From NCBI GenBank assembly GCA_903906695.1, contig CAIVLG010000260.1, positions 715 to 64,714 on the forward strand: DNA of 64,000 bases, in the 5' to 3' direction. Shown one piece after another: positions 43,533 through 56,767 of the stretch. The translations under genes and the position numbers were made by a program. The notes beneath the pieces are model-generated. The model was not told where the DNA came from, did no database searches, and worked only from the letters and a program-made list of their open reading frames with translations. Source of the DNA: an uncultured beta proteobacterium. Lineage in GTDB: Bacteria; Pseudomonadota; Gammaproteobacteria; Burkholderiales; Burkholderiaceae_C. Every line of letters begins with the position of its first letter. The stretch's first letter is position 1.

Positions 43533-45263
43533 TCAAGTCGCAAGCGCATGCACCTTGTCGTAGGCCAGCAGCAATTTGCGGTGCATTTCACAGCCTTCCA
43601 GCATCAAACCGGGGGCTTCAATACCCATGAAGCGATCGGTCTGCATGATGAGCGAGTGCGCCTGAGTCACAGCACCGGCACCGTAAAGCTGGCGCAGGGC
43701 GTCCAGGTAGGGACCACTGTCGCCCATGTCGGCGAGGTTGATCAGACACTCGATGCAGGCGTAGACACTGCGCCGCTGCGGATTGATCTGATCAAAATGC
43801 CGGATCCAGTCGCATCCCTCCAGCGTTGCCGCTTCGTCACCGCTTGCCAATGCCAGCAAAGTCTTGAGCTCACCGATGCGCAGGTCACTCCAGAACGAAT
43901 CGGCATCGGCGGCCAGACCGATGACCGCTGCCACCAGGCGCTGGTCGGCCAACGCCGATTCGTTGAGCGTGTCCAGCAAATCGGCGCATTCCTCGTCGTC
44001 CAGATCCGTCAGGTTCAGGATCGGCTCGCGGATGGAATTGCCGACACAGTTGTTCTCGAACTCCAGGTCATCCACCGGGTAGATCTCCGACATGCCCGGC
44101 ACCAGAACGCGACAGGCGTAGACACCCAAGTGGGTGAAGTCGGCGATGTAGATGTCGCGCCCGTCCCGGTGAATTCGATCCACCGCCCAAGCATAGTCTT
44201 CCGCAGTGCTGTTGCTGAAATTCCAGTCGCAAAACTCATGATCAGGCTGGTCGCCGAGAAATTTCCAGTGAACGACACCACTGGAATCGACGAAATGAAT
44301 TTCAATATTGGTCGAACTCGCGACTTCTTCCAGATCAAAACCGGGCACCGGAAAGCCGGCCAGCGCGTCGAGCGCCCGCCCCTGCAACAGTTCGGTCAGG
44401 GCGCGCTCAAGGGCAATTTCGAAGCGCGGATGGGCGCCGAAGCTGGCAAAGCAGCCCTGGTCGCCGGGGTGCAGCAGCGTCACGTTCATCACCGGGTACT
44501 GGCCGCCCAGCGAAGCGTCCTTGACCAGAATGCCGAAGCCGGCAGAGCGCAAGGCATCGATGCCCGCTGCAATGCGCGGATAGCGTCCGATCACCGTCTC
44601 GGGCACGTCGGGCAGGCAAATGCCTTCGCTGATGATCCGGAACTTGATGTGACGCTCGAAAATTTCGGACAGTGCCTGGGTGCGCGCCTCAAACTGGGTG
44701 TTGCCCGCCGACATGCCATTGCTCACGTAAAGGTTGCCGATGATATTGACCGGAAACCAGGTTACAACACCATCGCGCTGACGCTCATAGGGAATTGCGC
44801 AAATGCCGCGCTCCCCGTTGCCGGAATTGAATTCGACCAGGCTGCTGGCGTCCACACTGCCCTCGGGGTTGTAGAACTTATGCAGTTCGACATTGAGGAC
44901 GTCCGAAGGCCAGTTGCCGTCCTGGCCAGGTTCAAACCAGCGCTCCTGCGGATAGTGGACGTAGGGTCGATCGGCGATAACCGACCCGAGGTAATAGTGG
45001 GTCCAGAAATAATTGGTCGAGAGGCGCTCAAAAAACTCGCCCAGGGCGCTGGCCAGACAGGCCAGCCGGCTGCCACCTTTGCCATTGGTGAACAGCAGCG
45101 GGCAATCGCGATCACGGATATGCACTGACCAGATGCCCTCCACCGGATTGAGCCAGCTGTGCTCCTCGATGTGAAAGCCCAAACCTTGCAAGCGGGCCTG
45201 CAGGGTATTGATGGTGGATTCGAGCGAGGCGTCCTTGCCCGGGATGAAATTTTCGGTATGCAT
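43533..45263 (-). CDS. ycaO: YcaO (S12 methylthiotransferase accessory factor type)
   Basis: FIPGKDASLE, WLNPV, FTNGKG, SALGEFFERLS, SNGMSAGN, EIFER. Start placed at ATG 45263. Confidence 0.9.
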   Translation of the reverse strand: MHTENFIPGKDASLESTINTLQARLQGLGFHIEEHSWLNPVEGIWSVHIRDRDCPLLFTNGKGGSRLACLASALGEFFERLSTNYFWTHYYLGSVIADRPYVHYPQERWFEPGQDGNWPSDVLNVELHKFYNPEGSVDASSLVEFNSGNGERGICAIPYERQRDGVVTWFPVNIIGNLYVSNGMSAGNTQFEARTQALSEIFERHIKFRIISEGICLPDVPETVIGRYPRIAAGIDALRSAGFGILVKDASLGGQYPVMNVTLLHPGDQGCFASFGAHPRFEIALERALTELLQGRALDALAGFPVPGFDLEEVASSTNIEIHFVDSSGVVHWKFLGDQPDHEFCDWNFSNSTAEDYAWAVDRIHRDGRDIYIADFTHLGVYACRVLVPGMSEIYPVDDLEFENNCVGNSIREPILNLTDLDDEECADLLDTLNESALADQRLVAAVIGLAADADSFWSDLRIGELKTLLALASGDEAATLEGCDWIRHFDQINPQRRSVYACIECLINLADMGDSGPYLDALRQLYGAGAVTQAHSLIMQTDRFMGIEAPGLMLEGCEMHRKLLLAYDKVHALAT

Positions 45264-45352
45264 GGATGCCAGCATACCGCACGAATGTCGCACATGTCGC
45301 TGACGGTAAACTCGGGGGCCAGCCCTTCGCACTATTTCTACCGGAGACTTCC

Positions 45353-45655
45353 ATGATTCTTGAACTCGCCGACATCCGCATCCACCCTGGTCAGAACGCT
45401 GCCTTTGAAGAAGCCATTGCACGCGGCTTGCAAGGCGTCAGTCAGGAGGTCAAGGGGTTTCAGGGTCACAAGGTCAACCGCGGCATTGAGAATCCGCAGC
45501 GCTACGTTCTCCAGATCTTCTGGGACACGCTGGAAGACCACACTGTCGGTTTTCGGCAGTCGAGCGCCTTCACCGCCTGGCGCGCCATCGTCGGTCCATT
45601 CTTCGCCGGCCCTCCGGTGGTCGAGCATTTCGAACTCGTTAGCAAATCAGCTTGA
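45353..45655 (+). CDS. Antibiotic biosynthesis monooxygenase (ABM) family protein
   Basis: MILELADIRIHPG, WDTLEDHTVGFRQS; RBS GGAGA. Confidence 0.85.
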   Translation: MILELADIRIHPGQNAAFEEAIARGLQGVSQEVKGFQGHKVNRGIENPQRYVLQIFWDTLEDHTVGFRQSSAFTAWRAIVGPFFAGPPVVEHFELVSKSA

Positions 45656-47101: not shown

Positions 47102-47998
47102 TTGTCAGTCGTGTTGCCGCGCCACGCCGACATCGCGAAATACGCAGCCAAGGCAGCGGGTAAGAACCAGTGCGTGTTTTTTACAAACCAGATGTACCAG
47201 CGGGTGCAGGAACGCATGACGATGGAGCAGGCACTGCGCCAGGCCGTAGCCGACGAGAGTCTGGAGGTCTGGTTTCAACCTGTCGTCGAGCTCACGACCG
47301 GGCGCGTGATGGCGCTCGAAGCACTGGCCCGCTGGCTCCGTGCGGATGGCTATTGCCCGCCCAGTCAGTTCATTGGGATCGCTGAAGAATCCGACTTGAT
47401 CCACTCTTTGGGCCTGATGATCGCGAAAAAATCGGTAGCCGCACTGGCTGTGATTCGCGAAGCACATCCATACATCACGATGGGCGTCAACCTCTCGGTG
47501 CGGCAGCTGCGAAACAAGCAGACACTGGCGCTGCTCTGTGAGCTGGTGGATGCGCAGCAACTGCCACGCGACAGTGTGCACTTTGAAGTGACCGAAAGCG
47601 ATGTTGCAAAAGACTTTCTGCTGCTCGAAGAACACCTCAATCTCTACGTGCGGGCCGGCTTCTCGCTGCACCTCGATGATTTCGGCACCGGTCAATCCTC
47701 GCTGCATCGCTTGCAGGGCTTGCCTGTGTCGACCCTGAAAATCGATAAATCATTTGTCGATCTGATCGAAACAGGTGACGAACGCTTCGTCAAAACCATT
47801 CTCCTGCTGAGCCAGCAACTGGGCCTGGCCGTGATCGCCAAGGGTGTTGAAACCCAACATCAGCGCGACCGCTTGCAGGCCTTGGGCTGCCAGTTCATCC
47901 AGGGCTACTTCTACGCCGAGCCCATGTCCTTGCCTGACTTACTGAAGTTCTTGACCAGTCAAGCCGAACCGACGCTCCCCGAAAACCCTGACGCCTGA
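47102..47998 (+). pseudogene. Truncated GGDEF-EAL gene: EAL domain plus last helix of GGDEF, probably inactive
   Basis: Starts with the GGDEF C-terminal helix remnant LPRHADIAKYAAKAAGKN. LEALARW, FEVTE, DDFGTG and KID are present, but IAKGVET replaces the catalytic AEGVET. TTG start with no clear RBS. Confidence 0.65.
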
Positions 47999-48292: not shown

Positions 48293-50116
48293 ATGACGTT
48301 CAGTGAAGGAACGACGGCAAAAATAGGCCTGACAGCCGAAATGACGCAAAAGGCGCTTGAAGCTTTGCGCGTGCATCAAGTTGAGCTGCAAATGCAAAAC
48401 GAGGAGTTGCGCCAGATACAGCACAAGCTGGATGCGGAGCGCGAGCGCTACTTCGACCTCTACGATCTGGCGCCAGTAGGCTATTGCACCATCAGCGCAG
48501 CGGGGTTGATACTCGAAGCCAACCTTAGCCTCGCCACCATGCTGGGTGTGGCGCGCGTTCACTTGGTCCAGCATCGGCTCAGTCACTATCTGCATGGCGA
48601 CGACAGCACGACCATCTACTACCAATTTTGCAAGCAACTGCTGGCAAGCCGCATGGCGCAAACTTGCGAGTTACAAATGGCGTCCAAGAGTGGCCAGCCG
48701 TTCTGGACCAGACTGATGGCCACCGCAATGCCAGGCAAGAACGATGAAGTCGTGCTGCGCATCGTTCTGAGCGACATCACTGAGCAACGCAGAACCACCA
48801 GGCAACTGGAGGAGGTGAGCGCGGAGCAGGCCGCCATTCTCAACAGCGACATTGTTGGCATCATCCGGCTCAAGGACCGAAAATTCGTCTGGGTCAATGG
48901 CCTGTTTGCTCGTCTGCTGGGTTACGCGCCGGACGAACTGATCGGTCAGCCAAGCAGTATTTTCTATGCCAGCGAGGAAGAAGCGCTGGCTTTGGCAAGA
49001 GCCGCTTACCCAGTCATAGCCAGCGGACACCTGTTTCACGCCGAACAACGATTCATGCGCAAGGACGGTGGACCGTTCTGGGCCGAAGTCAGTGCCTGCC
49101 TGCTCAAGCCGGGCAGCCAGGAATCGATCTGGTCATTTATTGACATCAACGAACGCAAGCGGATGCAGGCGGCGCTGAGCACAAGCGAAGCGCTTTTCAA
49201 GCTCATCTTCAACGAAGCGCCGCTGGGCATCGCCTTGACCGACAGCGCCACTGGCCATATTCAGGTTGTCAATCCGATGTTTGCCAGAATCGTGGGCCGC
49301 AGCGTCGAAGAAATATCCCGGATTGACTGGATGAGCATCACGCATCCGGACGACCTGCAAGAGGATATGGACAAAATGGCCTTATTGAAGACCGGGAGAA
49401 TCACCGGATTCCGGGTCGAGAAGCGCTATCTGAGACCGGGTGGCGAGCCAGTCTGGATCAATATGACCATCGCCGCCCTGGAGCTGACCAACAATAACGC
49501 CGAGCGGCGCCATCTGTGCATCGTCGAGGACATCAGTGAGCGCAAGCGAATGGAAGAGCAGGTTCGACAATTCGCTTTCTTCGACGCGCTGACCGCACTA
49601 CCCAATCGCCGTCTGCTGATGGACCGGATGAGCCAAGCCATCAGCGCGTCCAAACGAAGCGGCTGCTACGGCGCCTTGATCTTCCTGGATCTGGACAACT
49701 TCAAACCGCTCAACGACCAGCACGGGCATGCTGCTGGTGACCTACTCCTAATCGAGGCGTCCCGTCGCCTCAATGAGGGCGTGCGTGCCGTTGACACGGT
49801 GGCGCGCTTGGGCGGTGATGAATTTGTGGTACTGCTGGGCAGCCTGAGCACGAACAAATTGGAATCCACCGCACAGGCCCGGCGTATTGCCGAGGCATTC
49901 CGCAGCAGTCTGGCCTTGCCCTATGTGTTTTCATCGCCGAGCAGTAACAGCGGCCCCGTTGCCATTGAGCATCACTGCAGCGCCAGCATCGGCGTGGTGA
50001 TGTTCAACACCGCTAGCCACGACCCGCAACAGCTCCTGAAATGGGCTGACGCCGCCATGTACCAGGCCAAGCAGGCGGGGCGCAACCGGGTCCAGCTTTA
50101 CGCCGGCAACACATAG
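48293..50116 (+). CDS. Diguanylate cyclase: coiled coil + 3 PAS/PAC + GGDEF
   Basis: HQVELQMQNEEL coil, three PAS/PAC units ending in SDITE, IDINE and EDISE, DALTALPNRR, FLDLDNFK, RAVD I-site, RLGGDEF. Confidence 0.92.
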   Translation: MTFSEGTTAKIGLTAEMTQKALEALRVHQVELQMQNEELRQIQHKLDAERERYFDLYDLAPVGYCTISAAGLILEANLSLATMLGVARVHLVQHRLSHYLHGDDSTTIYYQFCKQLLASRMAQTCELQMASKSGQPFWTRLMATAMPGKNDEVVLRIVLSDITEQRRTTRQLEEVSAEQAAILNSDIVGIIRLKDRKFVWVNGLFARLLGYAPDELIGQPSSIFYASEEEALALARAAYPVIASGHLFHAEQRFMRKDGGPFWAEVSACLLKPGSQESIWSFIDINERKRMQAALSTSEALFKLIFNEAPLGIALTDSATGHIQVVNPMFARIVGRSVEEISRIDWMSITHPDDLQEDMDKMALLKTGRITGFRVEKRYLRPGGEPVWINMTIAALELTNNNAERRHLCIVEDISERKRMEEQVRQFAFFDALTALPNRRLLMDRMSQAISASKRSGCYGALIFLDLDNFKPLNDQHGHAAGDLLLIEASRRLNEGVRAVDTVARLGGDEFVVLLGSLSTNKLESTAQARRIAEAFRSSLALPYVFSSPSSNSGPVAIEHHCSASIGVVMFNTASHDPQQLLKWADAAMYQAKQAGRNRVQLYAGNT

Positions 50117-51879
50117 CCACGCTGGCGAAACAGCGTCAGGCAGGCGTCCGCCACTCGTCCGTCAAAATGGCTTGGGTGCAAGCGGGTAATTTCTTCCAGC
50201 GCGGCGTCGATGCCGAGTGCGCTCCGATAGGGACGATGAGAACTCATCGCCTCAACCACGTCGGCGACGCACAGGATGCGCGCACCGAGCAGTATCTGCT
50301 CGCCCCGGAGTCCCTGCGGATAACCCGATCCGTCCATCAGTTCATGGTGTTGCAGAACCATCTGCGCAATCGGCCAGGGAAACTCAATGCCTTTGAGGAT
50401 GTCGTAACCAGCTTGCGAATGAACCTTGATCAGGCTGTACTCAATCGCGCTGATCTTGCCCGGCTTGCTCAGTATCTCGGCTGGCACCTGGGTCTTGCCC
50501 ACATCGTGCAGCAAACCCGCAAGGTGAATCGCATGCACTTCCTGCGCCGGCAATCCCATCTCACCGGCGATGGCTGCTGCCAGTGCGGCAACCCGCACCT
50601 GGTGGCCGGAGGTATAGGGGTCCCGCATTTCGACAATGATCGCAATCGCCCGCACCGTGTCTTCCAGGTTCTTCTCGAGCTGCGTCACGTGCTGTTCGTT
50701 CTTCTTCCACGCCAGATCGCGCTCCAGCCGGATGTGCACGGCCTCCACGCCGAAAGTCAGATCAGCGCTCATCTCTTCGAGCAGCATGACTTCAGCCGGA
50801 ACAAAGGCATTGACTTCGGCGGCATAGACGTGCAGCACGCCAAACACGGCTGCCTGGGCGTCCAGCAATGGCAAGGCAATGCAGGCGAGGTAACCGCGTT
50901 GCAGCGCGGCCTCGCGGCAGGGCAGAAAGAGTGGATCGCTGGCAATCTCCTGACAGAGTTGTGTCGTCGCGCTGCGCACCGCACGCCCACTCGGCCCCAT
51001 GCCGCGCTCGCCCGCCCCCCAGACATTGCACACCGCATCCAGATAGCCCTCATCATGACCCGCAGACGCCATCACCTTGATCGATTGCTGCTCATCGTGT
51101 TGGACATAGCCGACCCAGGACATGACATAAGCCTGCTGCCCGACGATGGCCTGACAAATGTGTTGCAGCAGTTCATCTTCATTCCTGACGTGGACCAGTT
51201 CCCGGTTCACGGCGACCAGATTGGCCAGGGCGCGGTTCACGTGCTCGGTCTTCACTTCAGCGCGCGTCTTGTCATCGACCACGCGTTGCAGCAGCTGACG
51301 TGACTGCTCGGATGCCACCAGCAACTCCTGCGCCAATTGCTCGCCAGCAATTTTGGCCGCGTTTTCCTTCTGCTCCCTCAGGTCGGTTGCTACCAGACAG
51401 AACAAGTCAGGCTCTAAGCCCCCGACCATGCGCGTGACGGAAATATAGATCGGAAGTTCAGTGCCGTCCGGCGCACTCAGTCGTAACTCGCAGCGCCGTG
51501 CCGCGTCGCCATCGGCCGCGAGCATGGACGCCAGAATGCGCTGCTGATCCGGCGCCAGCCAGCGCTCGATCGAGCCGCCAATCACCTGCTCCAGCGGCGT
51601 CTTGAGCATCTCGGCAAAGCTGCGGTTGGCATAAAGCGTGATGCCATGCGCCGTCAGCAACAGAGCGCCTTCAAACATTTCCTCGACCAGCTTGCGATAG
51701 ACCTCATCGGCGCCTTGGAGCGCAACCAGTTGCTCGCCAGCCGCGCTGGTGACCAGCAGCGCATCGACCTCGCCACCGTGCAGCGCGCGCACGAGATCCT
51801 CGGCCTGGCTCAGGCGCGCGCGCAAGGTCTTGTTCTCGGCTCGCAGTCGTTCTTCCGTGGTGGCTGATTTCGTCATCAT
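50098..51879 (-). CDS. c-di-GMP phosphodiesterase: coil-PAS-GAF-HD-GYP
   Basis: RDPYTSGHQVRV, LLHDVGK, HHELMDGSGYP, VADVVEAMSSHRPYR; PAS starting YRKLVEEMFEG; GAF ending SADLTFGV. Confidence 0.92.
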   Translation of the reverse strand: MMTKSATTEERLRAENKTLRARLSQAEDLVRALHGGEVDALLVTSAAGEQLVALQGADEVYRKLVEEMFEGALLLTAHGITLYANRSFAEMLKTPLEQVIGGSIERWLAPDQQRILASMLAADGDAARRCELRLSAPDGTELPIYISVTRMVGGLEPDLFCLVATDLREQKENAAKIAGEQLAQELLVASEQSRQLLQRVVDDKTRAEVKTEHVNRALANLVAVNRELVHVRNEDELLQHICQAIVGQQAYVMSWVGYVQHDEQQSIKVMASAGHDEGYLDAVCNVWGAGERGMGPSGRAVRSATTQLCQEIASDPLFLPCREAALQRGYLACIALPLLDAQAAVFGVLHVYAAEVNAFVPAEVMLLEEMSADLTFGVEAVHIRLERDLAWKKNEQHVTQLEKNLEDTVRAIAIIVEMRDPYTSGHQVRVAALAAAIAGEMGLPAQEVHAIHLAGLLHDVGKTQVPAEILSKPGKISAIEYSLIKVHSQAGYDILKGIEFPWPIAQMVLQHHELMDGSGYPQGLRGEQILLGARILCVADVVEAMSSHRPYRSALGIDAALEEITRLHPSHFDGRVADACLTLFRQRGYVLPA

Positions 51880-52202
51880 GCGAGAGGCCGAATATCCAGA
51901 CCGACCAGAACACGCGCGGTGTCCGACATATCGCCAACGAGCCGGCGCAGCGGCGGCGGCAGTTTCTTGATCAGGGTCGGCACCGCAACAATCTGTTCTC
52001 CCTTGGCCAGTTGCGGCTGCTGATAGAGGTCAATCACCACCAGCGCATAGCGTCCTTTGAGATGCTCCTCGCAGATTCTCCTGATATTGCCGATGGCGCG
52101 GACTGAATTGGTGGTCTGTCCGGCGACGTACAAACGCAGTACGTAGCGGTCTTCTCTTGCGCCACTTGACGCATCCCCGGATTTCACAACCGGTGTTTTC
52201 AT
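51876..52202 (-). CDS. kaiB: Circadian clock protein KaiB homolog
   Basis: YVLRLYVAGQT, IDLYQQPQLA, PTLIKKLPPPLRRLVGDMS; ATGA overlaps with both neighbours. Confidence 0.93.
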   Translation of the reverse strand: MKTPVVKSGDASSGAREDRYVLRLYVAGQTTNSVRAIGNIRRICEEHLKGRYALVVIDLYQQPQLAKGEQIVAVPTLIKKLPPPLRRLVGDMSDTARVLVGLDIRPLA

Positions 52203-53926
52203 TTCTTGTCCAGCGCAGTATCAGCCTGCCGGCTCAGGCCCATTTGGCCACGTTCCCGTGTCAGCTGCAGCGCCTGCGTCTGCTCCTGCCCGATCAGGCT
52301 CATGGTCTCGGTTGCCTGTGCCTCGAACTCGGCGCGCAGCGCTGTAATTTGCGCCTCCAGCGCGCCAAGTTTTCGCTCCACGCCACGCTGCTGGCGTTCA
52401 ACTCCCTGTGCGCGCAACAAGGCTTCCGCCTTTTCCTGCGCCTCCCGCGCCAGTCGCGCCGAGCCCGTCAACACACCGCTGGCGCCGACGTACACATCAC
52501 GCAATTCGACGCCGTGACTGGTGAGCAGGAACTCGCGGATCTGGTTAGAGTGCTCCATTCCGCGTGACTTCAGGATGTTCAAACTGCGGTTGCGTTCGCC
52601 ACCAAGTTCGATGTCGCGCAGAATGAGCCAGGTATCGATCAGCGACGAGACAGCGATGTCGGTTTGCTCAAGCGCCGAGCCGCCGGCTGTTAGATTGGTG
52701 AACAAGCCGGTGATTTGCCTGATCTTGAGGAAGTCCACCAGTCTCATGCACATGGCCTTGACTTCCGTGGCATTTCCGCCGACGACGAAACTGCTCAGGG
52801 GATCGATGGCGACCGCCTGCGGATCGAAGGCATTGATCGCCTTGTGCATCGTCGTCAGGTGCATCTCCAGCCCGCTGAAGCTGGGTCGATTTGCCTGGAA
52901 CTGCAGCAAACCCATCTTCACCCACGGTGCCAGATCGATGCCGATGGAACGCATATTGCGCATGATCTGGCTGGGTGACTCCTCAAAGGCAAAATACAGC
53001 GCGCGCTCACCGCGCCGGCAGGCGGCGTCGATAAAGTGTGCCGCCAGACTGGTTTTGCCTGTGCCGGCCGTGCCCGAGACCAGTACGCTGCTGCCACGGT
53101 AATAGCCATTGCCGCTGAGCATGGTATCCAGACGCGCAACGCCGGTAGAGATGTGCGCATTGCTGACCGGATGCTGCAAGCCCAGCGAGGTGATGGGCAG
53201 CACCGAGATGCCGTCTTCGTCAATCAGGAACGGATACTCGTTGGTGCCGTGGGTCGAGCCCCGATACTTGACGATGCGCAGACGTCGCGACGAGGTTTGC
53301 TCGCTGACGCGGTGATCGAGCACGATCACGCAGTCCGACACATATTCTTCCAGCCCCTGGCGCGTCAGGGTCATCTCGCCACGCTCACCGGTGATGATGG
53401 CGGTCACGCCTTTTTCTTTCAGCCAGCGAAACAGGCGGCGCAGTTCAGCGCGCAGGATGAGCTGATTTGGCAAACCGGCAAACAGCGATTCGATGGTATC
53501 AAGCACCACGCGCTTGGCGCCAATCTCTTCAATCGCTTGGCCCAGACGGATGAAGAGCCCTTGCAGATCGTATTCGCCGGTGGCCTCGATCTCGCTGCGC
53601 TCGATATAGACAAAGTCAACCAGCAACTTCTTCTTCCGAACCAGGTCTTTCAGGTCAAAGCCCAGCGAGGCCACGTTGGTCGTCAGCTCCTGCGCCGTTT
53701 CCTCAAAGGTCACAAAGACACCGGGCTCGTCGAACTGCCGCGCGCCGTTCACCAAAAACTCCATCGCCAACACCGTCTTGCCGCAGCCGCTGGGGCCGCA
53801 GACCAGCGTCGGCCGTCCCTGTGGCAAGCCGCCACCGGTGATTTCATCGAGACCCTGGATGCCGGTGGGCGCCTTCGGAAATGGCGGTCTTTTCTCTTGT
53901 TTCAAGTGCGGCTTTGCTCTTGGCAT
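52199..53926 (-). CDS. kaiC: Circadian clock protein KaiC homolog (double-domain, C-terminal coiled-coil tail)
   Basis: CI GPSGCGKT, FVTFEE, KYRG; CII GTAGTGKT, FAFEES, KSRG; phosphosite region AVSSLIDTW. Start 53926 has an AGAGGA RBS (53944 is the alternative). Confidence 0.94.
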   Translation of the reverse strand: MPRAKPHLKQEKRPPFPKAPTGIQGLDEITGGGLPQGRPTLVCGPSGCGKTVLAMEFLVNGARQFDEPGVFVTFEETAQELTTNVASLGFDLKDLVRKKKLLVDFVYIERSEIEATGEYDLQGLFIRLGQAIEEIGAKRVVLDTIESLFAGLPNQLILRAELRRLFRWLKEKGVTAIITGERGEMTLTRQGLEEYVSDCVIVLDHRVSEQTSSRRLRIVKYRGSTHGTNEYPFLIDEDGISVLPITSLGLQHPVSNAHISTGVARLDTMLSGNGYYRGSSVLVSGTAGTGKTSLAAHFIDAACRRGERALYFAFEESPSQIMRNMRSIGIDLAPWVKMGLLQFQANRPSFSGLEMHLTTMHKAINAFDPQAVAIDPLSSFVVGGNATEVKAMCMRLVDFLKIRQITGLFTNLTAGGSALEQTDIAVSSLIDTWLILRDIELGGERNRSLNILKSRGMEHSNQIREFLLTSHGVELRDVYVGASGVLTGSARLAREAQEKAEALLRAQGVERQQRGVERKLGALEAQITALRAEFEAQATETMSLIGQEQTQALQLTRERGQMGLSRQADTALDKK

Positions 53927-53970
53927 GGTTGGGATCCTCTTCATGACTCATTCATGTGGCTCACCAGAAG

Positions 53971-56433
53971 CTAACGGCAGCTCACAAGCACCTGCTTGAG
54001 ATCGAGTTCGCCACGCAGAACTTTCTCGATGGCGTGCTGCTCAAATGTCACCATGCCGGTGGCGACGGCTTCCTGCAGTATCTTGGTCGAGTTCACCCTG
54101 GCCTGGATCATCGCCTTGATGGAAGCCGAGGCGACCAGCAGTTCATAGACGCCCAAACGCCCTTTGTAGCCGCTGAGTTCACACATGGGGCAACCCACCG
54201 GCGCGTGCAGTGTGATCGCGCCCTCCTTGTCGCCATAGAGCGAACGCCAGCTGGCAACGATCGCGACCGGGTCCAGATCAAGGTCATGGCAATACTCGCG
54301 CGCGAGTCCCTCCAGATCCTGGGGCGATGCCTGGTAGGGTTGGCTGCATGAAGGGCAGAGCCGACGCACCAGTCGCTGACCCAGAATGCCGATCAAGGCG
54401 TCCGAGAAATTGAACGGGTCCAGTCCAAAGTCGAGCAAGCGAATGATACTTTCGACAGCACTATTGGTGTGCATGGTGGACAGCACCAGGTGACCTGTAA
54501 GGGACGCCGCAATCACCGTGTGGGCAGTCTCCGGGTCTCGGGTCTCACCGACCATGATCACATCAGGATCAGCGCGCAGAAAGCTGCGCAACACGCTGGG
54601 AAAAGACAAGCCGAGCTTCTCGTTGACCTGAACCTGGCACAAACCGTCCTGGCTGATCTCGATCGGGTCTTCCACCGTCCAAATCTTGCGCTCTGCCGTA
54701 TTGATATGGTTAAGCAAGGAGTGCAGTGTCGTGGTCTTGCCGGAACCGGTAGGACCGCAGACGAAGATCAGTCCAAAGGAACGAAGCGCCATCGATTTGA
54801 AATCGGCCAGGACGCGTGGCGAAAAACCGAGTTGTTCCAGGGACAGGGTGCGTGGCGCAGACAGGATGCGCATGACAACGTCTTCCATACCGCCCGCTGT
54901 GGGCATGATCACGACTCGCAACTCGATGCGTCGGGGACCGAAATCGCGGAACCGGATCCTGCCATCCTGGGGCCTGCGATGCTCCGAGATGTCGAGCGAG
55001 CTCATGATCTTCAGACGTGATACCAGGGCTGCGCGAAAGTTGGGCGGAACATCGATATAGGATGACAAAACACCGTCGATGCGAAAGCGCACCCGACTCG
55101 GTTTCTTGCCGATCCTGGATTCGATGTGGATGTCGGATGCCCCCTGGTCAAAGGCATCCGTAATCATCTTGTTGACCAGGCGCACCAGCGTGTTGTCGGA
55201 CTCGGTCACCACTTCGGCCTGTGCGCGTTCGGTGAACTTGTCCTCTACTCCAAGCTCTGCGATGATCTCACCGATGTGCCCGTTGTCTGCGTCCGCACCG
55301 TAGAACTGTGCGATGGCCGACAAAAGATCCTCGTGCTCGGCAATCACCGGATCGACTTTCAAACCGGTGAAGAATTCAATTTCATGCAGCGCCTGCAATG
55401 ACAATGGATCTTCCATGCTCACCACGATTCTTCCATCGGTACGGTACATAGGCATGACGTGATGCTTGCGGGCGAGTTCGGCCGACACCGCCTTGATGGC
55501 GTTCGGATCGTACTGAAAGCGCGACAGGTTGACGCACGGAAAACCGAGCTGTTCGACAAGAACCTTGCGCACCACTTCGCGCGTCACCACGCCCATTTCC
55601 ACCAATATGGCGCCGATCGGTTTGCTCCGGTCACGACCTTGTTTTGCCAATGCCGCATCGCGTTGCACCATGCTGATGATCCCTTCCTGGACCAGCACGT
55701 CGCCGAGCTTGATGTGCGCCATCGTCCGCTGGCGCGCCAGAGCCATTTCAAGTTGCTCGCGCGTGACCAGATCCTGATCGGCGAAGTAGGCACCTATCTT
55801 GCGATCGCGCAATTCATGCTGGATTTGCAGTCCCACTTGCAGGGCCTCCGTTGAAACTGCATATTGATCATGCAAGGTCTGTCCGACCCGATCGCCAACG
55901 TTGTAGCTCGAGAATGCTGCTGTTGGAACAAAGCAGCGCACGATCTCATCGGCCGAATCGATCACAAACAGAAACAGTCCTTCCTTGCGGATCACGATCG
56001 ACATGAGTGCGTACTGGACGGTCGATGCGTCCTTGAAGGTCACTACACACTGACGTCGGGTGGTACTGGCGCGCGCTTCAAGAGCACCCGGTGGCACCGC
56101 CATCGGGATCGCTTCGAGTTCAACGTTCCGGCATAGATACAGGCTGCGCAGGGTCTCGAACAGCACGTGACGAGATGAACCCAGGCTGGACGCAATGTCC
56201 AAAGTCCCTGCTTCGAAGTCAATCCTGCTGACCTCACCGACAATTTTTTCACCGTCGCTCAGAGTGGCTATGCCGCGTTCCGGCTTGGAGTCAAGGTCTT
56301 CACAAACCAAGCGCATATGGTGCGGCACGGGCCAGTGCAAGGCATTCGGCCCCGCATCCAAGGGAGCGACTGCGCCAGCGGGACTGGCGGTCGATGTTGC
56401 CAATGGCAGCGGAGTGGGTCGGGATAGGTTCAT
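53971..56433 (-). CDS. GspE/PilB/MshE-family secretion ATPase with MshEN-like repeats and an uncharacterised N-terminal domain
   Basis: GPTGSGKTTT, TVEDPIE, DPDVIMVGETRD, TGHLVLSTMHTN, CPSC...CPMC; repeats of xxG-x(20)-Q (e.g. KLGDVLVQEGIISMVQRDAALAKQ). Confidence 0.9.
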   Translation of the reverse strand: MNLSRPTPLPLATSTASPAGAVAPLDAGPNALHWPVPHHMRLVCEDLDSKPERGIATLSDGEKIVGEVSRIDFEAGTLDIASSLGSSRHVLFETLRSLYLCRNVELEAIPMAVPPGALEARASTTRRQCVVTFKDASTVQYALMSIVIRKEGLFLFVIDSADEIVRCFVPTAAFSSYNVGDRVGQTLHDQYAVSTEALQVGLQIQHELRDRKIGAYFADQDLVTREQLEMALARQRTMAHIKLGDVLVQEGIISMVQRDAALAKQGRDRSKPIGAILVEMGVVTREVVRKVLVEQLGFPCVNLSRFQYDPNAIKAVSAELARKHHVMPMYRTDGRIVVSMEDPLSLQALHEIEFFTGLKVDPVIAEHEDLLSAIAQFYGADADNGHIGEIIAELGVEDKFTERAQAEVVTESDNTLVRLVNKMITDAFDQGASDIHIESRIGKKPSRVRFRIDGVLSSYIDVPPNFRAALVSRLKIMSSLDISEHRRPQDGRIRFRDFGPRRIELRVVIMPTAGGMEDVVMRILSAPRTLSLEQLGFSPRVLADFKSMALRSFGLIFVCGPTGSGKTTTLHSLLNHINTAERKIWTVEDPIEISQDGLCQVQVNEKLGLSFPSVLRSFLRADPDVIMVGETRDPETAHTVIAASLTGHLVLSTMHTNSAVESIIRLLDFGLDPFNFSDALIGILGQRLVRRLCPSCSQPYQASPQDLEGLAREYCHDLDLDPVAIVASWRSLYGDKEGAITLHAPVGCPMCELSGYKGRLGVYELLVASASIKAMIQARVNSTKILQEAVATGMVTFEQHAIEKVLRGELDLKQVLVSCR

Positions 56434-56767
56434 TAGTTTCAAGAGTTTCCAATTCAGTCCTGCCGGGACTGGAGCGAGCACAGCTGTGCCTGCGGGGTTT
56501 CGATGCAGTGCAGATTGACTTTCAGCATCTGATCCAGGTCAGCATTGCGTGCTACGCCAAGCGTGGCGTAATAGTCCTCATACTTCATGATGCGGTAATT
56601 TCCCATGGCACAGGTATCGGGTCTGTGCGCTATCGCACTGACACTGACAACGTGCAGGCAAGTAAAGGCGTATGCCCGTGTCCAAAGCTACTTTATTTTT
56701 GGTAGGATTTACGTCGACCGCGATGTGGTGGTCAATTGATTTGACAATCTTCTGCTGGGGGATACCG

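Follow-up and report, generated by a model that had tools for sequence, protein, structure and literature searches.

We analysed a stretch of 64,000 nucleotides (nt) from contig CAIVLG010000260.1 of an uncultured beta proteobacterium (assembly GCA_903906695.1), hereafter called the window; all coordinates are positions in it. Its minus strand exhibits an open reading frame (ORF, 53971 to 56433, 820 amino acids (aa) by ORF list and translation) corresponding to a stand-alone ATPase of the PilB/GspE family, with an array of motifs of the MshEN type, a receptor module for cyclic di-guanosine monophosphate (c-di-GMP). The longest form of this ORF (53971 to 56481, 836 aa) begins at a GTG codon at 56481. 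The called start is the ATG at 56433 (MNLSRP...), and the 820-aa database protein P0002 starts at the same ATG. The ATPase gene is the first of a tight operon, followed on the same strand by kaiC (52199 to 53944), kaiB (51876 to 52202) and a gene for a PAS-GAF-HD-GYP protein (50098 to 51879). The stop codon of the ATPase gene and the start of kaiC are 26 nt apart, and the kaiC/kaiB pair and the kaiB/HD-GYP pair each overlap by 4 nt. The operon is flanked by a PAS-GGDEF cyclase gene, with an EAL gene just past it. A sigma-70 promoter scan over the operon region gave zero matches; terminator-like matches there were at chance level, with none between the operon genes.

The motif array (55549 to 55890, minus strand) consists of four copies of 24 residues joined by 6-residue spacers, with an exact period of 30 residues. 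Copy 1 (RVGQTLHDQYAVSTEALQVGLQIQ, residues 182-205, 55819 to 55890) is the most degenerate. It is followed by copy 2 (KIGAYFADQDLVTREQLEMALARQ, residues 212-235, 55729 to 55800), copy 3 (KLGDVLVQEGIISMVQRDAALAKQ, residues 242-265, 55639 to 55710) and copy 4 (PIGAILVEMGVVTREVVRKVLVEQ, residues 272-295, 55549 to 55620). All were identified from the translation, the motif match and the conservation in the family, and copies 3 and 4 also with the NCBIfam model NF053729. The Arg codon of RVGQ, residue 198 in the 836-aa form, begins at base 55890. The four peptides quoted in the original prediction, which was made from the DNA alone, are all found in the minus-strand translation at the place given there. 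The last of them had been described as a half copy. It is a full 24-residue copy ending at 55549, and looked halved because the end coordinate of that description, 55585, cut it short.

The four-copy repeat is far outside chance: compared in pairs, the copies reach a mean BLOSUM62 score of 27.8, whereas 5000 shuffles give -21.8 +/- 4.5 (z = 11). We then scored 11 constrained positions in each copy. Copies 1 to 4 match the strict MshEN consensus at 7, 6, 9 and 8 of these positions, and the relaxed motif of Wang et al. 2016 ([RKPN]hGxxhhxx[GAS]hhxxxxhxxxhxx[QNKRYWST]) at 9, 10, 10 and 11. Shuffles of the ATPase protein yield 0.9 relaxed-motif matches each at 9 or more of the 11 positions, so that a relaxed match alone is weak evidence; the relaxed regular expression was rejected as proof of the motifs by itself. 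NF053729, a c-di-GMP motif model of 53 positions with a cut-off of 38 bits, gives 64.3 bits for the whole ATPase protein, and 48.5 and 46.9 bits for the adjacent pairs of copies 3+4 and 2+3, respectively. The array exhibits the MshEN architecture of two 24-residue motifs with a short spacer in a domain of about 53 residues, the spacer being 6 residues here and not 5. Gly3 and Gln24, both critical for the ligand (PMC5013675, PMC12002112), are present in all four copies, Arg1 in copy 1 only and Gly10 in copies 3 and 4 only.

Directly after copy 4 comes LGFP..., the start of the MshEN_C subdomain, as in canonical MshE and PilB. This classical T2SSE_N alpha/beta subdomain (PF05157, 74.8 bits, residues 312-397 of the 836-aa ORF) occupies 55291 to 55548. 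In a sequence search of the Protein Data Bank (PDB), the alignments with Myxococcus xanthus PilB and the N-terminal region of Vibrio cholerae MshE begin at copy 3. Thus copies 3 and 4 hold the canonical MshEN_N position, and copies 1 and 2 are an extra module upstream; the four copies are two MshEN_N-like modules ahead of one MshEN_C.

The T2SSE ATPase core (53986 to 55203) scores 385.7 bits with PF00437 (cut-off 24.9). It carries a Walker A motif (GPTGSGKTTT), an Asp box/Walker B (DPDVIMVGETRD) and a His box (GHLVLSTMHTN), together with the tetracysteine Zn motif (CxxC...CxxC) of assembly-type ATPases (C693/C696/C748/C751 in the 820-aa numbering), and all of these are invariant among relatives. 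The assignment to PilB/GspE-type ATPases made in the original prediction therefore holds, with the domain score and all ATPase motifs kept. The protein stays below the equivalog cut-offs of both PilB (TIGR02538, 494.6 against 675.65) and GspE (TIGR02533, 463.1 against 630.25). The best explanation of these sequence features is that the gene encodes an intact, extension-type hexameric ATPase of the PilB/GspE family, belonging to a rare and distinct subfamily.

Upstream of the array lies an all-beta N-terminal domain (residues 40-180 of 820, 55894 to 56316), predicted by AlphaFold2 (AF2) as two small beta-barrels with a mean local confidence score (pLDDT) of 84 and a predicted template modelling (TM) score (pTM) of 0.80. 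A Foldseek search of the PDB returned no significant match for this domain (best E-value 2e-3, TM-score at most 0.31), and the only Pfam match is DUF6982, below threshold (13.9 against 24.5 bits). Resemblances to tandem-Tudor and Sm-like folds are weak (E-value 2e-3 or worse, TM-score at most 0.31), and we assign the domain to no fold family. No PilZ match was found in the Pfam, PDB sequence and Foldseek searches. Run over 1.84 billion representative proteins, a profile of the domain collects only 229 clusters, with the match at the N-terminus in every case. MshEN and/or T2SSE domains follow it in nine of the ten matches checked, and the tenth is a 275-aa fragment without Pfam match. The domain is uncharacterised and specific to this ATPase subfamily. 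In one metagenomic protein of 621 aa (P0036) it is joined straight to the T2SSE core, the MshEN region being absent.

Of 400 genomes sampled within the same order, about 30 encode the architecture of the subfamily (N-terminal beta domain, four motifs, one MshEN_C, ATPase core), with 25-37% identity in the N-terminal region. Closer relatives (42-55% identity in that region) occur in Ideonella, Ramlibacter and metagenomes. The four-copy array is kept throughout, except in Ramlibacter albus, where copies 1 and 2 are deleted. Across 32 members, Gly3 does not vary in any of the four copies, and Leu6 and Leu21 hardly vary. Copies 1-3 conserve Gln24; in copy 4 the close clade conserves it, and the wider family has Lys there. 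A basic lead residue (Lys or Arg) is conserved in copies 2 and 3 only, which are also the most similar pair of the four. Copy 1 has a variable lead and no turn Gly, and keeps Gly3, Leu6, Leu21 and Gln24 family-wide; copy 2 conserves Lys/Arg at position 1, Gly3, Leu17, Leu21 and Gln24. At position 17 of copy 3, the window protein and its close clade have Arg, and the wider family has Leu.

The same genome encodes a paralogue of 844 aa with the same N-terminal domain and four motifs (contig C204, L018:9960-12494). Its gene sits between a metallophosphatase/Ser-Thr kinase gene and an APH-like kinase gene, with a 4-nt overlap. Another long orphan GspE-type ATPase of this genome (contig C32, L019:8902-11412, 836 aa) has a GAF N-terminus, with FHA and PP2C genes before it and two pilin genes after it. 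A close relative of the window ATPase on a JGI contig (L158, carrying P0003) may be plasmid-borne, since the same contig has a RepC replication gene.

The motif array is likely to be a c-di-GMP binder, a prediction made from sequence. Copies 3 and 4 adjoin MshEN_C, and copies 2 and 3 keep a basic lead residue. The expanded array of the original prediction is supported, and the c-di-GMP receptor role that it proposed is plausible in view of the model scores, the retention of Gly3 and Gln24 and the c-di-GMP genes nearby. The same prediction had doubted binding on account of lead residues that are mostly Lys or Pro. The leads are indeed R, K, K and P in copies 1 to 4, but the worry is overstated: the relaxed motif permits R, K, P or N and so allows the K, K and P leads, and mutants of Arg9 changed the affinity no more than fivefold, whereas Gly11/Gly40 and the hydrophobic contacts are critical for c-di-GMP binding (PMC5013675). 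Furthermore, in the PDB sequence alignment the Pro-led copy 4 resembles the 'KPLGEILVELG' of the GSPII-C region of Thermus thermophilus PilF, a domain that as a whole binds c-di-GMP with a dissociation constant of 12 nM (PMC12002112).

Genes of c-di-GMP turnover recur next to members of the subfamily. In Ramlibacter albus, PAS-HD-GYP and CHASE-GGDEF genes are located directly upstream of the ATPase gene. In an Ideonella metagenome-assembled genome (MAG), the ATPase gene shares its start with the end of an overlapping GGDEF-EAL gene and is followed by a PAS-GGDEF gene. A MASE3-PAS-GGDEF gene is upstream on a JGI contig, and a GGDEF gene in a further locus (L070). In total, a diguanylate cyclase gene is found upstream in 4 of about 31 ATPase loci (binomial P ~2.5e-4, with the background set by GGDEF in about 0.75-1% of the genes of the window's genome, 33 matches). 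The association is recurrent, not universal. An all-against-all clustering of the neighbours in 25 family loci exhibited no conserved neighbour beyond genus-level synteny, and the genes involved in the latter are housekeeping genes such as those for PurL, YjeF and MlaA.

The ATPase was originally described as an orphan, and the wider survey agrees: no GspF/PilC, pilin or secretin gene occurs among the Pfam-scanned neighbours (about 41.3-59.9 kb of the window), and no T2SSF domain on the contig. Kai genes, c-di-GMP genes and cytochrome c genes surround it in the window. Seven GspE/PilB-type ATPases are encoded in the genome (98% complete, 289 contigs), for only three PilC/GspF platform genes. 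The latter are on other contigs and each adjoins an ATPase gene of its own, so that no vacant machine is evident in the genome. Across the subfamily there are essentially no platform or pilin neighbours, with the exception of one relative (L069) located beside a second ATPase gene and pilin genes. The stand-alone location is therefore a trait of the subfamily.

This lack of a vacant platform, and the almost constant stand-alone location among housekeeping or signalling genes (Ser/Thr kinase, phosphatase, GGDEF), would also fit an ATPase that is mainly a signalling protein or c-di-GMP sensor, relaying its nucleotide state (for instance to exopolysaccharide production) instead of driving a filament. 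A precedent exists in M. xanthus PilB, for which a signalling role toward exopolysaccharide production has been proposed (PMC5544727). However, all motor-type motifs are invariant, including the Zn tetracysteine of assembly ATPases, and the relative L069 does adjoin a second ATPase and pilins. We consider a mainly signalling role improbable.

KaiC (581 aa) is a full two-domain protein with two Pfam KaiC domains and a C-terminal coiled-coil tail (NF006799, 752 bits, cut-off 408), and is the only true KaiC of the genome. KaiB is canonical (PF07689, 94.7 bits; NF006798, 110.3 bits, cut-off 110). KaiA is absent from the genome. A two-domain KaiC followed by KaiB without KaiA is the composition of a KaiA-less KaiBC timer, to which we assign the window kaiBC by sequence. 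We compared KaiC with its 80 closest relatives in species-representative genomes (60-78% identity, many phyla). The kaiB gene is downstream in 66 of the 80. None of them has a GspE-like ATPase gene within 7 kb, nor is KaiC found near the ATPase in any of 31 ATPase relatives. The juxtaposition of the ATPase gene and kaiC is thus a peculiarity of this genome or its close kin.

The original prediction saw in this juxtaposition a likeness to the archaeal KaiC-like ArlH (FlaH) and its partner ATPase ArlI (FlaI). If the likeness were functional, KaiC would bind and regulate the ATPase directly. Two observations would suit such contact: the genes lie 26 nt apart in one operon, and KaiC has a weak likeness to ArlH. 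That likeness is below threshold (98.3 bits, the cut-off being 215), and the ATPase reaches 63 bits with the FlaI model, whose cut-off is 550. Moreover, the window KaiC is a full two-domain protein encoded with KaiB, the pairing with the ATPase is missing from both sets of relatives, and the ATPase has an N-terminal domain that is found family-wide whereas KaiC is not. The analogy is unsupported for want of a conserved pairing, and direct regulation by KaiC appears highly improbable.

A c-di-GMP link of the Kai genes is found elsewhere. In the closest KaiC loci (L076-L079 and L135, from Rhodoferax, an uncultured beta-proteobacterium, Roseateles, Halochromatium and a Chloroflexia MAG) kaiB is followed by a c-di-GMP gene, of multi-PAS-GGDEF-EAL or PAS-GAF-HD-GYP type. 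The N-terminal 180 aa of the window HD-GYP protein are 44-47% identical to the PAS-GGDEF-EAL proteins encoded downstream of kaiB in Rhodoferax and Roseateles, and 28% identical to the protein encoded downstream of kaiB in the Chloroflexia MAG. Three loci were aligned with the window over this module, which comprises a coiled coil, GEVDALV, GADxxYR and the first PAS domain (window 51340-51879, minus strand; L076:9033-9572; L079:6627-7166; L078:9138-9677). The same Kai-output module precedes different catalytic outputs, HD-GYP on the one hand and GGDEF-EAL on the other. A parallel is found in cyanobacterial KidA, a multi-PAS GGDEF-EAL protein whose PAS domains bind KaiB in its fold-switched state (PMC9478674).

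The proteins of c-di-GMP turnover encoded in and beside the operon retain catalytic motifs. The HD-GYP phosphodiesterase (Kai-output N-terminal module, PAS and GAF; HD_5, 130.9 bits) retains its HD, HHE and GYP motifs. The PAS-PAS-GGDEF diguanylate cyclase (48293 to 50116, plus strand; GGDEF, 137.8 bits) has an intact GGDEF motif and an RxxD I-site. The two genes are convergent and overlap by 19 nt (50098-50116), which leaves no space for terminators between them. The product of the EAL-domain gene (47102 to 47998, plus strand; PF00563, 198.2 bits) carries the EAL, DDFG and KID motifs. This ORF opens with what appear to be the last 25 or so residues of a GGDEF domain (ADIAKYAAKAAGKNQCVFF), and the gene upstream of it, for a NUDIX hydrolase, is unrelated; the ORF is probably what is left of a GGDEF-EAL gene after truncation. 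A YcaO cyclodehydratase gene is located near kaiBC both in the window (43533-45422, minus strand) and in a Rhodoferax MAG (L076:3647-5851), and may be a leftover of shared synteny around the Kai genes.

The operon brings together two tendencies that are independent of each other: the ATPase clade and the KaiBC clade each lie beside c-di-GMP enzymes. What we observe is confined to gene order, domain content, motif conservation and neighbour statistics. On this ground we propose the following pathway. A KaiA-less KaiBC timer would control the HD-GYP phosphodiesterase via the Kai-output N-terminal/PAS module, by analogy with KidA and KaiB. The HD-GYP activity would set the local c-di-GMP level, and this level would decide the occupancy of the MshEN array, with one or two molecules per subunit. 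Occupancy would in turn tune the activity of the ATPase. The driven machine would most likely be a type IV pilus or a type II secretion system (T2SS) platform encoded elsewhere, shared with the platform's own ATPase. We regard this reading as a whole (subfamily ATPase, c-di-GMP-binding array and the path from KaiBC through HD-GYP and c-di-GMP to the ATPase) as somewhat probable. The route through the PAS-HD-GYP protein and c-di-GMP is likelier than a direct link of the ArlH/ArlI type.

Besides the platforms already provided with an ATPase, several points weigh against this pathway. We infer co-transcription of the ATPase gene with kaiC from gene spacing and nothing else. The five closest ATPase relatives with known context (L155-L159, 65-68% identity) lack nearby c-di-GMP genes, and most of the wider family likewise has unrelated neighbours. 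In the array, copies 1+2 score only 31.6 bits with NF053729, under the cut-off. Arg17 of copy 3 falls at a Leu contact position, and the turn Gly of copies 1 and 2 is replaced by Tyr and Asp, respectively; these residues are outside the relaxed motif. Position 7 of copy 1 is His. These are graver deviations than the lead residues. Small deviations do abolish binding in other proteins: PilF GSPII-A is silenced by the absence of Gln24, Gly3 and Arg1 from its motif II, along with other features (PMC12002112), and XpsE lost binding via a few substitutions (PMC5013675). The full-length AF2 model (13 sequences) is poor (pLDDT 56), so that the packing or pairing of the motif copies into bundles is not readable from it.

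The same deviations, the precedents of XpsE and of GSPII-A (which resembles MshEN yet does not bind) and the many family members without c-di-GMP neighbours are what one would expect if the array were a degenerate, non-binding helical scaffold, acting as rigid spacer or docking pad, with the nearby c-di-GMP genes coincidental. Against such decay, the residues whose loss costs PilF GSPII-A and XpsE their binding are retained (Gly3 in every copy, Gln24 in copies 1-3 and, within the close clade, in copy 4 as well), two adjacent motif pairs exceed the NCBIfam cut-off, and the adjacency of GGDEF genes is enriched. We take the scaffold explanation seriously and find it unlikely.

A stronger form of the proposed pathway can be conceived, in which the operon is the complete and self-contained output of a non-cyanobacterial KaiBC hourglass, the array is a two-site and possibly cooperative receptor that reads a local pulse of c-di-GMP, and pilus or secretion activity follows the alternation of day and night. 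In Synechococcus elongatus the clock is known to control type IV pili, by a mechanism that may differ (PMC10807798, PMC7125226). We entertain this stronger form only as a doubtful extension. The locus matters because little is known of what KaiBC systems control outside cyanobacteria. In the window, one locus encodes candidates for an input (KaiBC), a transducer (HD-GYP with Kai-output module) and a receptor (MshEN-ATPase), which makes the pathway directly testable with a few purified proteins. The ATPase subfamily also offers a clean case for counting the c-di-GMP molecules bound per expanded MshEN array, and for the role of PilB/GspE paralogues without platform.

The components of this system have known counterparts: MshEN itself, tandem (MshEN_N)2, the multi-GSPII PilF and Kai-linked c-di-GMP enzymes. 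New are the architecture of the subfamily (uncharacterised N-terminal domain, invariant four-motif array, stand-alone in nearly every locus examined) and the operon uniting this ATPase with KaiBC and HD-GYP. V. cholerae MshE and M. xanthus PilB share with the window ATPase the MshEN_N motifs, MshEN_C, the T2SSE core and the Zn motif, and copies 3+4 align residue for residue with their motifs I and II (PDB 3jc8, E-value 3e-119; 5htl, E-value 3e-10). They differ in lacking the two extra motif copies and the 140-residue all-beta domain upstream. The leads of the aligned copies are K and P in the window instead of R, and position 17 of copy 3 is occupied by R. Furthermore, the window gene is outside any pil, msh or gsp cluster and its product below both equivalog cut-offs.

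Multi-domain PilF and tandem (MshEN_N)2 arrangements are described in the literature (PMC12002112, PMC5013675). T. thermophilus PilF is likewise an assembly ATPase whose MshEN region is expanded at the N-terminus. Three consecutive motif copies are seen in the GSPII-C region, and the 'KPLGEILVELG' there nearly equals the copy 4 consensus of the family; not every PilF copy binds c-di-GMP (PMC12002112). In PilF, however, whole GSPII domains (N and C subdomains) are repeated, making three GSPII/MshEN domains without a beta-barrel N-terminal domain, whereas the window ATPase repeats only the N-subdomain motif ahead of a single C subdomain. The (MshEN_N)2 and NfrB-type fusions (Wang et al. 2016; Junkermeier/Hengge 2021) likewise have MshEN_N in tandem and in fusion, and such modules serve as local receptors of c-di-GMP beside dedicated cyclases (PMC5013675, PMC8669469). 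In the accessible part of those accounts they are not joined to this N-terminal domain and ATPase.

On the Kai side, ArlH-ArlI (FlaH-FlaI) similarly has a KaiC-like protein encoded with an ATPase of the secretion superfamily, but ArlH is a single-domain protein without KaiB, the window proteins miss the corresponding models, and the pairing in the window is not conserved. KidA provides the closer parallel. There too a Kai clock component is tied to an enzyme of c-di-GMP turnover through PAS domains (PMC9478674), and in the window and its relatives a PAS-containing c-di-GMP enzyme comes directly after kaiB. The window differs in that its output is HD-GYP, KaiA is absent, and the operon itself includes the gene of a candidate c-di-GMP receptor.

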